A stretch of 14,410 nt of DNA from Candidatus Auribacterota bacterium (GTDB taxonomy: Bacteria > Auribacterota > UBA6266): contig JAGLRQ010000003.1 in NCBI GenBank assembly GCA_023136205.1, positions 1 to 14,410 of the forward strand, given 5' to 3'. Of this stretch, positions 10,286-12,706 are shown piece by piece (positions within the stretch are counted from its first letter, which is position 1; each line of letters begins with the position of its first letter). Under the pieces are notes generated by a model. That model was not told the origin of the DNA. It searched no databases and was given only the letters and a program-made list of their open reading frames with translations. A program made the position numbers and the translations under genes.

Positions 10286-10894
10286 CTACCTGCTCTTTTT
10301 TTGCTGCAGACTTCTTCCTTGTTTTTTTACATAAATTATTCTCTTCTCGGTGACAACAACATCTACAGGCTCATCATGCTTTCTTCCGGATACATCTTCC
10401 ACAACCTGAAAATCAAATGCAACTCCGATTCTTTTTGTCTTCTTTCCTGTCTTTTTTAAAAACTTATCGTAATAACCTTTTCCCCTTCCTATCCTGTTGC
10501 CTTTCGTGTCAAAAACAACTCCCGGAAGAATGACAAGATCAAGATCCTCTACGGAACAATCTCTGTGCATATTCTGTTTCGGCTCCATTATGCCATAAGA
10601 CGATTTCTCAAGATCTCCTAAAGAATTAACCCTCCCTATAGTAAATAATTCTTCTTTTTTCTTGCACCTTGGAAGATATACAATTTTTCCTTTAGAACAG
10701 GCATTCTGGATTATCTGCCTTGTATCCACTTCGTCATCCAATCCATAAAACAAAAGTACCCTCTTTGCCGAGAGAAAAAACTCATTATCTTCAAGCTTCC
10801 TGGCCACCAACGTAGAAACTTTCTCTCTATCTAACGGTAATTTTGTTTTAAGACTGGAAATCCAGTTCCTCAGTCTTTTGATTCTCTTCTCCAA
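10286..10894 (-). CDS. 5-formyltetrahydrofolate cyclo-ligase (MTHFS/YgfA family), 202 aa
   Basis: Family pattern seen: ...AKRVLLFYGLDDEVDTRQII...GKIVYLPR...YGIMEP...DLVILPGVVFDTKGNRIGRGKGYYDKFL. The only start that keeps the conserved N-terminal helix is TTG at 10894, which overlaps the rarA 3' end by 25 nt. The start is moderately uncertain. Confidence 0.85.
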   Translation of the reverse strand: MEKRIKRLRNWISSLKTKLPLDREKVSTLVARKLEDNEFFLSAKRVLLFYGLDDEVDTRQIIQNACSKGKIVYLPRCKKKEELFTIGRVNSLGDLEKSSYGIMEPKQNMHRDCSVEDLDLVILPGVVFDTKGNRIGRGKGYYDKFLKKTGKKTKRIGVAFDFQVVEDVSGRKHDEPVDVVVTEKRIIYVKKQGRSLQQKKSR

Positions 10895-12186
10895 ATTTTT
10901 AACCGCTCAGCAATTTGTTTCTCTTCTCCGTTATCCGAAGGATGGTAATACCTCTTATCCTTCGGCAAATATTTCTGTTTTACATAATTGCCGGGAAAAT
11001 CATGAGGATACTTATAATCCACTCCTCTCCCGATTGTCTTCGCGGATTTATAGGTTGAATCCTTAATGTGCATGGGAACTTCCATTACTTCCCCTTTTTC
11101 AATATCGGCCCACGCCGCAGATATCGCTTTATACGATGCGTTACTCTTGGGAGCAACCGCAATATATACGGCAGCCTGCGAAAGAATTATCTTCGCTTCG
11201 GGCATGCCTACAAAATTTACAGCATCAGCAGCTGCCTGAGCGACCACAAGAGCCATGGGATCAGCGTTGCCAACATCCTCACTCGCACAAATAACCATTC
11301 TCCGGACAATAAACATAGGGTCTTCTCCCGCGTATAACATCTTTGCAAGCCAGTAAACCGACGCGTCGGGATCACATCCCCTCATACTCTTAATAAATGC
11401 CGAGGCAGTATCATAATGACCATCCCCTGTTGAGTCATAAACTACCTGTTTTTTTTGAACTGAATCCTCAATAACCTCACGGGTTATCTTTACCACACCG
11501 TTTTTCGGCTCGGTGGTCAAGACAGCCATCTCAAGAGCATTAAGGGCTTTTCTCGCATCACCACCACTTACCTGTGAAATAAATTCAATATTACCAGGTA
11601 CTATTTCAACTCTCATTTTTCCAAAGCCCCTCTCCTTGTCTTCCAGGGCTTTTCTTATAATCTTTTTAATTTCCTCTTTCTCAAGTTTTTTCAGTTCAAA
11701 TATCAAAGACCTTGAAAGCAAGGGCGGAATAACCGAAAAGAACGGATTCATAACTGTTGCCCCCACTATAGAAATCACACCCCGTTCAACATCAGGCAGC
11801 AACGCATCCTGCTGGGCTTTATTAAACCTGTGTATCTCATCTATAAAAAGAACCGTCTTTTTCCCTTCGTCAGAAAGACGATTCTTGGCTTCTGTCACAA
11901 TTTTTCTTATATCTTTTACATTCGCGGTTACCGCATTCAGATAGTAAAAATGCCTTTTTGTCGTATTGGCAATAACAATACCTAGAGCGGTTTTACCACA
12001 ACCGGGAGGGCCAAAGAAAATAATGGAGGTAAAATTGTCAGACTTAATGGCACGCCATAATAGCTTACCCTTTGCGATTACATGCTCCTGTCCAACAATC
12101 TCTTCAAGAATGCCAGGCCTCAATCTATCTGCAAGCGGCCTTGCTTTATCTATCCTATTTTTGCTTTCAGTATCAAATAATTCCAT
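10870..12186 (-). CDS. rarA: replication-associated recombination protein A (RarA/MgsA, AAA+ ATPase), 438 aa
   Basis: ATG at 12186. Elements seen: PLADRLRPGILEEIVGQEH; Walker A GPPGCGKT; Walker B LFIDEIHRFNK; a MgsA C-terminal domain (HYDTASAFIKSMRGCDPDASVYWLAKML..GEDP.FIVRR); and YKYPHDF near the C-terminus. Confidence 0.93.
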   Translation of the reverse strand: MELFDTESKNRIDKARPLADRLRPGILEEIVGQEHVIAKGKLLWRAIKSDNFTSIIFFGPPGCGKTALGIVIANTTKRHFYYLNAVTANVKDIRKIVTEAKNRLSDEGKKTVLFIDEIHRFNKAQQDALLPDVERGVISIVGATVMNPFFSVIPPLLSRSLIFELKKLEKEEIKKIIRKALEDKERGFGKMRVEIVPGNIEFISQVSGGDARKALNALEMAVLTTEPKNGVVKITREVIEDSVQKKQVVYDSTGDGHYDTASAFIKSMRGCDPDASVYWLAKMLYAGEDPMFIVRRMVICASEDVGNADPMALVVAQAAADAVNFVGMPEAKIILSQAAVYIAVAPKSNASYKAISAAWADIEKGEVMEVPMHIKDSTYKSAKTIGRGVDYKYPHDFPGNYVKQKYLPKDKRYYHPSDNGEEKQIAERLKIWRRESKD

Positions 12187-12199
12187 GGAAAAATGGAAT
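12180..12199 (-). promoter_or_regulatory. 7-bp hairpin (AUUCCAU / AUGGAAU, 6-nt loop UUUUCC) whose 3' arm contains the rarA start codon
   Basis: Plus-strand arms attccat (12180-12186) and atggaat (12193-12199) are perfect reverse complements. The AUG at 12186-12184 lies inside the stem. No purine-rich SD is present in the 24 nt upstream (UUUUUUGUGUGAUUCCAUUUUUCC-AUG). Confidence 0.5.
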
Positions 12200-12204
12200 C
12201 ACAC

Positions 12205-12391
12205 AAAAAACCCCACATTTGCCGTGAGCAGCATCTCTTTGGTCCATAACTCAACAAGTGGGTACTCTCTCAAGCTTTCCTGTTATGCTACATTCCAGAC
12301 TTGAAGCCCGAGTTCCCAATAAAAAAACTGTTGGCTCAAAGAGTAATATGCTACAGCTCGAACAACGCAGGGCTTTTTTATTCTCTCTTCT
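12205..12391 (-). ncRNA. ssrS: candidate 6S RNA (SsrS-like), ~187-nt rod-shaped RNA; ends approximate
   Basis: The 244-nt gap has no credible ORF. From the promoter-predicted 5' end, the RNA folds by eye into one long imperfect hairpin. Closing stem: AAAAAAGCCCUGCGUU (12379-) pairs with AAAUGUGGGGUUUUUU (-12205), followed by GAGC/GCUC. Further pairs: GCAU (12351-12348) with AUGC (12234-12231), and CUCUUUG (12343-12337) with CAAAGAG (12241-12235). A central asymmetric A/U-rich bubble spans 12336-12318 against 12259-12242. The distal stem is GGGAACUC (12317-12310) with GAGUACCC (12267-12260), carrying one A.A mismatch, then an apical hairpin including UCAAG/CUUGA. It ends in a U6 tract. The size, rod-plus-bubble shape and position between zapA and a 5-FCL gene match 6S RNA. 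No covariance model was run. Confidence 0.5.
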
Positions 12392-12397
12392 ATCTTT

Positions 12398-12426
12398 ATT
12401 CTATCACAAGCTAAGAAGTTTTTCAA
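12398..12426 (-). promoter_or_regulatory. sigma70-type promoter: -35 TTGAAA, 17-nt spacer, extended -10 TGaTAGAAT
   Basis: On the minus strand the -35 TTGAAA is the complement of 12421-12426. The -10 TAGAAT is the complement of 12398-12403 and is preceded by TGa. The spacer (12404-12420) is exactly 17 nt. The promoter starts 5 nt after the zapA stop and predicts a transcription start near 12391. Confidence 0.55.
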
Positions 12427-12430
12427 GAAA

Positions 12431-12706
12431 TCATTTCTGAATTTCTGAATCAACAATGGTAATTATCCTGTTTACCTTTTCTTCCGCCTCTTTAAATTTC
12501 TTGTCGTTTTTCATAAGCGTATCAACAAAATTTAAACAGGCTAAAATAGCCAGTTTAGCTACAGGTATTCCAGGACTTTCCTTGGCAAGTTCGGTCATTT
12601 TTTTATCTACAACCGAAGCTACCTTAACAATGTGATCTTCGTCAATATCCCCTACAACGGGATACTCCGCCCCGTAAATTTTAACTTTTACTGGTTCGCT
12701 GCTCAA
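12431..12706 (-). CDS. zapA: cell division protein ZapA (91 aa)
   Basis: TTG start at 12706, preceded by GGAGAGAG. VKVKIYGAEYPVVGD...VASVVDKKMTELAK......KLAILACLNFVDTL matches the ZapA pattern (v.I.G..Y.l......e.l..aA..ld.km.e........a.l.al....). It lies directly downstream of pheT, as B. subtilis zapA (yshA) does. Confidence 0.85.
   Translation of the reverse strand: MSSEPVKVKIYGAEYPVVGDIDEDHIVKVASVVDKKMTELAKESPGIPVAKLAILACLNFVDTLMKNDKKFKEAEEKVNRIITIVDSEIQK

Follow-up and report, generated by a model that had tools for sequence, protein, structure and literature searches.

A 6S RNA gene between zapA and rarA in a Candidatus Auribacterota bacterium and its genomic neighbourhood

The 14,410-nt stretch of Candidatus Auribacterota DNA analysed here in full (the window) contains a gap of 244 nt (12187–12430) that is the largest ORF-free interval between its real genes, and the question is what this gap encodes. 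All genes in this part of the window are on the minus strand, and the gap is bounded by the stop codon of zapA (12433–12431) and the ATG of rarA (12186–12184). Only short minus-strand ORFs (22–57 aa) and spurious plus-strand ORFs overlap it. An initial annotation, made from the sequence alone, had likewise picked this as the largest non-coding gap, and proposed that it holds a 6S RNA with its own promoter, with zapA directly upstream and a 5-formyltetrahydrofolate cyclo-ligase (5-FCL) gene one gene beyond.

The neighbouring genes are as described there. The upstream neighbour, zapA (12431–12706, minus strand), matches Pfam ZapA (E = 5e-17), and the downstream neighbour, rarA/mgsA (10870–12186, minus strand), contains the Pfam domains MgsA_C, AAA_assoc_2 and AAA. 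It is followed by the 5-FCL gene, a homologue of ygfA/fau (ORF coordinates 10286–10894, minus strand; Pfam 5-FTHF_cyc-lig, E = 3e-40), the start of which overlaps the end of rarA by 25 nt. The full series of Pfam-identified products is PheT, ZapA, MgsA/RarA, 5-FTHF cyclo-ligase, RNase Y and YmdB, and a TPR/ExbB/ExbD cassette comes next.

A cmscan search of both strands of the entire window against all 4227 Rfam families returned one match, to 6S/SsrS RNA (RF00013). This 6S RNA (ssrS) match lies on the minus strand at 12206–12376, extends end to end across the model (positions 1–187), and scores 71.7 bits (E = 8.2e-13) where the gathering threshold is 46.4, which bears out the family assignment made initially. 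The interval given at that time, 12205–12426, covers the promoter plus the RNA, and the Rfam match proper is the shorter span. The match is the only one in the 1.76-Mb draft genome (92.65% complete), where a whole-genome search reproduced it. Contigs with the locus are present in the assemblies ERZ23498405, ERZ23498471, ERZ23498485 and GCA_030639325.1. Its score lies in the upper part of the range seen in the phylum, and is well below the 139.8 bits that E. coli ssrS obtains with the same model. The sequence blocks characteristic of the family (UGUUCG, UGAGCC, GGG, CCCAC and CGGCA) agree with the model consensus and are invariant or nearly so in an alignment of the phylum, in which the conserved blocks are listed as UGUUCG, GAGCCAAC, GGG, CCCAC and CGGCA.

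The predicted structure of the RNA is one long interrupted helix, as first described, with a minimum free energy of −58.7 kcal/mol compared with a mean of −46.6 for shuffled sequences (z = −3.0; none of 200 shuffles as stable). In this fold the 5′ strand of the closing stem (AAAAAAGCCCUGCGUUG, 12363–12379, minus strand) pairs with 12221–12205, and is followed by the helix CUCUUUG/CAAAGAG and a central bubble that encloses an internal and apical stem-loop (GGGAACUCGG ... GAGAGUACCC, 12260–12317, minus strand; helices 3 and 4). The bubble had been described as asymmetric, but its 5′ strand (AGCCAACAGUUUUUUUAUU, 12336–12318, minus strand) is 19 nt and its 3′ strand (ACUUGUUGAGUUAUGGAC, 12259–12242, minus strand), which is preceded by the conserved CCCAC block, is 18 nt, making it nearly symmetric. 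The apical loop (12271–12303) is 8–10 nt shorter than in the sister genus (L008, L009, L012 and L015), a property shared with the sister species; the 6S RNAs of the window and the sister species are 171 and 168 nt long versus 179 nt in the sister genus, with the deletion confined to the terminal loop.

Comparison of relatives supports the same structure. When 25 6S RNAs of the phylum were aligned with MAFFT, which is blind to structure, and the Rfam consensus structure was laid on top, 76.8% of cells were paired, versus 37.8–45.3% when the 3′ partners were slid by 1–3 columns; the sequences are related and the structure is taken from the family model, and the slid controls retain that relatedness and still differ by a large gap. 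Both sides change in 31 of 45 pairs, the covariation score is 0.327 (at most 0.153 with slid partners), and none of 500 shuffles reaches any of the observed measures. Compensatory changes are present in every helix. The closing stem (helix 1) is 90.2% paired over the 25 sequences, with 8 of its 17 pairs changing on both sides, and pairing reaches 78% in helix 3 and 67% in helix 4, with changes on both sides in 14 of their 16 pairs. RNAalifold applied to the same alignment recovers the closing stem and the stems adjoining the bubble, and 19 of the 29 pairs that it reports are compensatory.

The promoter reported initially, TTGAAA–17 bp–TGaTAGAAT, is present at 12426–12398 on the minus strand. 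Its −35 hexamer (TTGAAA, 12421–12426) begins 5 nt past the zapA stop codon, and a 17-nt spacer ending in TG leads to an extended −10 element (12398–12406; TG at 12406–12405 and TAGAAT at 12403–12398), such that 10 of 12 hexamer positions agree with the consensus in addition to the extended −10. From this geometry transcription is predicted to start about 7 nt past the −10 (~12391; 12389–12393, minus strand). A terminator-like site (12200–12221, minus strand) comprises the 3′ strand of the closing stem and a run of six U residues (12210–12205), and the distance between the two predicted ends gives a transcript of ~187 nt, consistent with the length and U6 ending proposed at the outset. The U-run after the closing stem is likely a weak intrinsic terminator or the 3′ end itself. 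The terminator-like feature is weak, consisting of either the long-range closing stem or a local hairpin of 6 pairs, and the 3′ end of the 6S RNA could be formed by processing instead of termination.

These signals are conserved together with the RNA. In an alignment of six genomes (the window's, its sister species and four of the sister genus) the TTG and AA of the −35 hexamer are invariant, and TTGnAA, the spacing, an extended −10 of the form TGTGnTAnAnT, the RNA, the U-run and the first bases of rarA are all conserved; the sister genus has TGgTAAATT at the position of the window's extended −10. The U-run is also kept throughout the window's family and in most of the phylum. In the more distant relatives L018, L019, L025 and L026 the RNA is preceded by a promoter of its own that resembles TTGACA/TATAAT, and in other relatives, with no visible promoter at this position, the RNA is probably transcribed from zapA.

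The gene is widespread in the phylum. Matches above the cut-off are present in 24 of 31 genomes (30 relatives plus that of the window), and in 51 of 79 genomes when the search is extended across the phylum (23 families). In tblastn searches with the window's proteins, a co-directional rarA is the next gene after 6S in 21 of the 24 primary loci, and zapA is detectable upstream in 15. Farther downstream, all 11 of the loci sampled, each from a different genus and together spanning 11 families, have the order rarA-5-FCL-rny, and ymdB follows rny in nine of them. Two loci of the window's phylum (L018 and L019) lack rarA, and 6S is directly before 5-FCL. Three genomes contain two 6S matches each (G010, loci L022 and L026; G019, loci L003 and L025; and G083), reminiscent of the 6S-1 and 6S-2 paralogues of Bacillus; the second copies are outside the pheT/zapA/rarA context, and two of them (L025 and L026) have their own promoters with TTGAC- and TATACT elements.

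This distribution also bears on whether the match could have arisen by chance in an AT-rich intergenic region. Promoter-like hexamers are not rare in such DNA (3 found in 700 bp versus 1.4 expected), and nothing beyond this general frequency speaks for a coincidence. An E-value of this size over both strands of the whole window, orthologous matches at the equivalent syntenic position in dozens of genomes, and covariation exceeding that of shuffled and slid controls all speak against one. The Rfam score, the orthologues in the phylum and the covariation together exclude a chance match, the probability of which we regard as negligible.

Seven families of the phylum have no 6S RNA detectable with the Rfam model, the largest being f9 and f11 (0 of 9 and 0 of 8 genomes), and a phylum-specific covariance model (R1) found none in five nearly complete genomes from 6S-negative families. 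The pheT-(zapA)-rarA-5-FCL-rny slot is intact in six 6S-negative genomes (G007, locus L114; G013, L131; G029, L132; G015, L130; G023, L128; and G021, L129), and it is too short to hold a 6S gene (~65 nt past zapA in G007). In about a third of the phylum, then, 6S was lost, or it moved elsewhere and has become unrecognisable through divergence. A search for the ZapA protein in five 6S-negative genomes found it in one, the other four being missed because ZapA is short and divergent.

Since such absences indicate that loss happens in this lineage, the copy in the window might itself be a 6S gene that has lost its function and is decaying, and of the 39 pairs of the Rfam consensus that can be placed on its sequence, 7 are non-canonical. 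However, promoter, RNA and U-run are all conserved between two genera, substitutions preserve pairing, and the copy is the sole one in its genome with a score that is high for the phylum. With promoter, structure and ends conserved in this manner, a relic is very unlikely.

The short distance between the RNA and rarA raises a further possibility. The rarA gene starts 19 nt past the U-run, leaving no room for its own promoter outside the 6S gene, and the promoter scan found no promoter-like site within the 6S gene. Because of this spacing, the lack of an internal promoter and the overlap of 5-FCL with rarA, expression of the two genes by read-through is probable; whether their expression requires transcription through the closing stem and U-run is, in our estimate, evenly balanced. 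Transcripts reading into rarA and 5-FCL would originate at the promoter of 6S or at that of zapA, in the way that ygfA/fau is expressed behind ssrS in E. coli.

The rarA start codon is buried in a hairpin, AUUCCA(loop)AUGGAAU (12180–12199, minus strand), that is at the same place in L007, L008, L009, L012 and L015. Its arms, ATTCCA and ATGGAAT, are kept across two genera in the six-genome alignment despite differing loop sequences, and no Shine-Dalgarno sequence is evident ahead of rarA. The hairpin may gate either the translation of rarA or transcript read-through.

Taken alone, these features would fit a 5′ leader or attenuator that acts in cis on rarA-5-FCL, resembles 6S RNA and has no action in trans on RNA polymerase. 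The closeness of rarA, the lack of a separate promoter-like site and the enclosure of the start codon in a conserved hairpin do suggest that the rarA transcript probably includes the RNA, at least on occasion. A purely cis-acting role is nevertheless highly improbable: the 6S model is matched over its whole length, with a score that clears the curated cut-off by a wide margin; the RNA precedes 5-FCL with no rarA present in L018, L019, L135, L141 and L142; and it is at a distance from rarA in L013/L127 and in two second copies (L025 and L026). Conversely, relatives that have no such RNA keep pheT-(zapA)-rarA-5-FCL intact with a short gap, and rarA thus does not need the RNA. The best explanation as a whole, which we hold with high confidence, is that the minus strand at 12206–12376 is the single 6S RNA gene of this genome, with its own housekeeping promoter and a rod-like product that, by homology, would mimic melted promoter DNA.

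The genomic position of this 6S RNA gene resembles that in E. coli. The annotation of strain MG1655 has the order zapA-ssrS-fau; ZapAB-SsrS-(FAU1) is conserved in beta- and gamma-proteobacteria and SsrS-FAU1 broadly in the Proteobacteria, and the dicistronic SsrS-FAU1 transcript of E. coli is processed to 6S RNA (PMC7641849). With reference to Barrick 2005 and Wehner 2014, PMC9130861 places ygfA beside 6S in the alpha- and gamma-proteobacteria, and also in part of the beta- and delta-proteobacteria and of the Firmicutes. The window shares with E. coli the same Rfam family, zapA directly upstream and 5-FCL downstream on the same strand (PMC7641849), a sigma-70-type promoter, a rod with a central bubble, the GAGCC, CCCAC and CGGCA blocks, and downstream genes that are probably reliant on read-through. 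It differs in that 6S, just after zapA and upstream of the co-directional 5-FCL, is separated from the latter by rarA, and in that its RNA ends in U6, whereas termination in E. coli is Rho-dependent and accompanied by 3′ processing going by the title of Chae et al. 2011 as cited in PMC7641849. The linkage of zapA, 6S and 5-FCL that the initial annotation supposed to extend past E. coli thus does so, as zapA-6S-rarA-5-FCL-rny-ymdB is conserved in the phylum.

A second likeness is to the Firmicutes. 6S RNA adjoins rarA in nearly all lactic acid bacteria, and 6S-1 (bsrA) of B. subtilis is near rarA; these loci share with the window the closeness of the two genes, a promoter belonging to the RNA and a U-rich terminator (PMC8414754). 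Unlike the window, in which rarA is immediately downstream and co-directional, the lactic acid bacteria have rarA upstream of 6S and B. subtilis has it in the opposite direction (PMC8414754), and neither zapA nor 5-FCL is reported at these Firmicute loci. Two cultured Firmicutes, Alicyclobacillus pomorum (L049) and A. herbarius (L058), contain co-directional 6S matches (74.6 and 85.4 bits, respectively) ~270 nt upstream of rarA; the orientation is that of the window, whereas the arrangement in lactic acid bacteria is the reverse, with rarA upstream.

The best named relative of the window's rarA is in the Omnitrophota MAG UBA10147, where it is part of a 6S-rarA-5-FCL-rny-ymdB segment. All 10 of the sampled relatives of UBA10147 have pheT-6S-(rarA)-5-FCL-rny-ymdB, with rarA present in seven and absent in three. 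Seven of the 10, as well as L028, agree with the window in both the order and the strand of 6S, rarA, 5-FCL, rny and ymdB, and in the three others (L135, L141 and L142) 6S abuts 5-FCL, as in E. coli. In contrast to the window, none of the 10 has zapA between pheT and 6S, and their 6S RNAs are shorter (~146–163 nt) and lower scoring (41–64 bits). The sampled relatives of UBA10147 do not overlap with those of the window, and with 79 genomes in 23 families the window's phylum seems too small to be the Omnitrophota, for which PMC10066038 gives 349 + 72 genomes and 276 species. Variable presence of rarA between 6S and 5-FCL is accordingly seen in two different phyla (L018 and L019; L135, L141 and L142).

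Across 80 rarA loci from many other phyla, 6S is found within 3 kb upstream in five (an Omnitrophota MAG, two Alicyclobacillus species, one Thermoanaerobacterales MAG and one unclassified MAG) and 5-FCL is nearby in two. With a 6S upstream of only 5 of 80, the arrangement is lineage-restricted and not general to rarA. Earlier publications on Proteobacteria and Firmicutes describe the linkage of 6S with 5-FCL and that of 6S with rarA. The locus of the window combines the two, to our knowledge in lineages from which they had not been reported, and a literature search found no mention of 6S together with Omnitrophota.

Homology allows the mode of action to be outlined. In its known role, 6S RNA imitates an open promoter, binds the holoenzyme containing the primary sigma factor, and is released upon synthesis of a short product RNA (pRNA), which in E. 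coli starts at U44 (PMC9670815). The genome of the window encodes a primary sigma factor, RpoD (contig C63; 394.9 bits). A second RpoD-like sigma factor (G000:C130:2181–2873) is encoded in a frame of 278 aa and scores 272.8 bits, below the RpoD cut-off of 354 bits. Transcription from the housekeeping-sigma promoter just past zapA, with its extended −10, would yield the ~187-nt RNA ending at the U6 after the closing stem. Its rod with a large central bubble would imitate melted promoter DNA and, in polymerase that carries the primary sigma factor, would fill the active-site channel, so that housekeeping transcription would be damped when nutrients are scarce.

When both RNAs are aligned to the Rfam model, C47 of the window's RNA (12330) corresponds to U44 of E. 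coli, and the predicted pRNA would therefore begin with G rather than A. C47 is within a block, CCAACA, of which C43, A46 and C47 never vary in the phylum alignment and the other three positions (C44, A45 and A48) reach at least 90% conservation. The putative template (CUCUUUGAGCCAAC, 12330–12343, minus strand), placed by the same model alignment, gives a predicted pRNA of 5′-GUUGGCUCAAAGAG, starting opposite C12330, and the first five bases of the prediction, GUUGG, are the same in 23 of 25 relatives. The pRNA of Bacillus 6S-1 is GTP-initiated, as this one would be. The predicted pRNA also has GG at positions 4–5, a feature called conserved in PMC8414754.

During outgrowth, polymerase would copy the 5′ strand of the bubble and the adjoining helix from C12330, and synthesis would unzip the CUCUUUG/CAAAGAG helix and allow the 3′ bubble strand to fold back on itself, releasing the polymerase. 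When the fold is computed with the 14-nt template blocked, this helix is lost and a new 9-bp hairpin forms between the 3′ bubble strand and CAAAGAG (12241–12235). Such a rearrangement is analogous to those that release polymerase in model organisms, but it is less clear in other genera: the hairpin is well formed only in the genus of the window, and the sister genus and several families form another small hairpin or none.

The locus is an ordinary 6S RNA gene, findable by any Rfam-based annotation and a routine addition to a well-known family; it leaves the understanding of 6S RNA action unchanged and is a modest side note in comparative genomics. It nevertheless provides an uncultured bacterium of small genome size with a 6S RNA gene annotated at its correct position, and shows that a global regulator that sequesters polymerase co-occurs with zapA, 5-FCL and rarA, its neighbours in the classical loci, outside the Proteobacteria and Firmicutes. 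Its uses are in annotation and in synteny as a guide to divergent 6S RNAs. A more speculative reading, tentative and on balance doubtful, is that (pheT-zapA-)6S-rarA-5-FCL-rny-ymdB is an old, selectively maintained unit joining the zapA-6S-5-FCL linkage of Proteobacteria with the 6S-rarA linkage of Firmicutes, in which 6S doubles as a promoter-proximal, partly terminating leader. If so, transcription of 6S would be coupled to the production of a replication-restart ATPase, a folate-salvage enzyme and perhaps RNase Y, and the variable presence of rarA in two phyla, together with clean loss of 6S from the slot in roughly one third of the phylum to which the window belongs, would represent evolutionary rewiring of that coupling.
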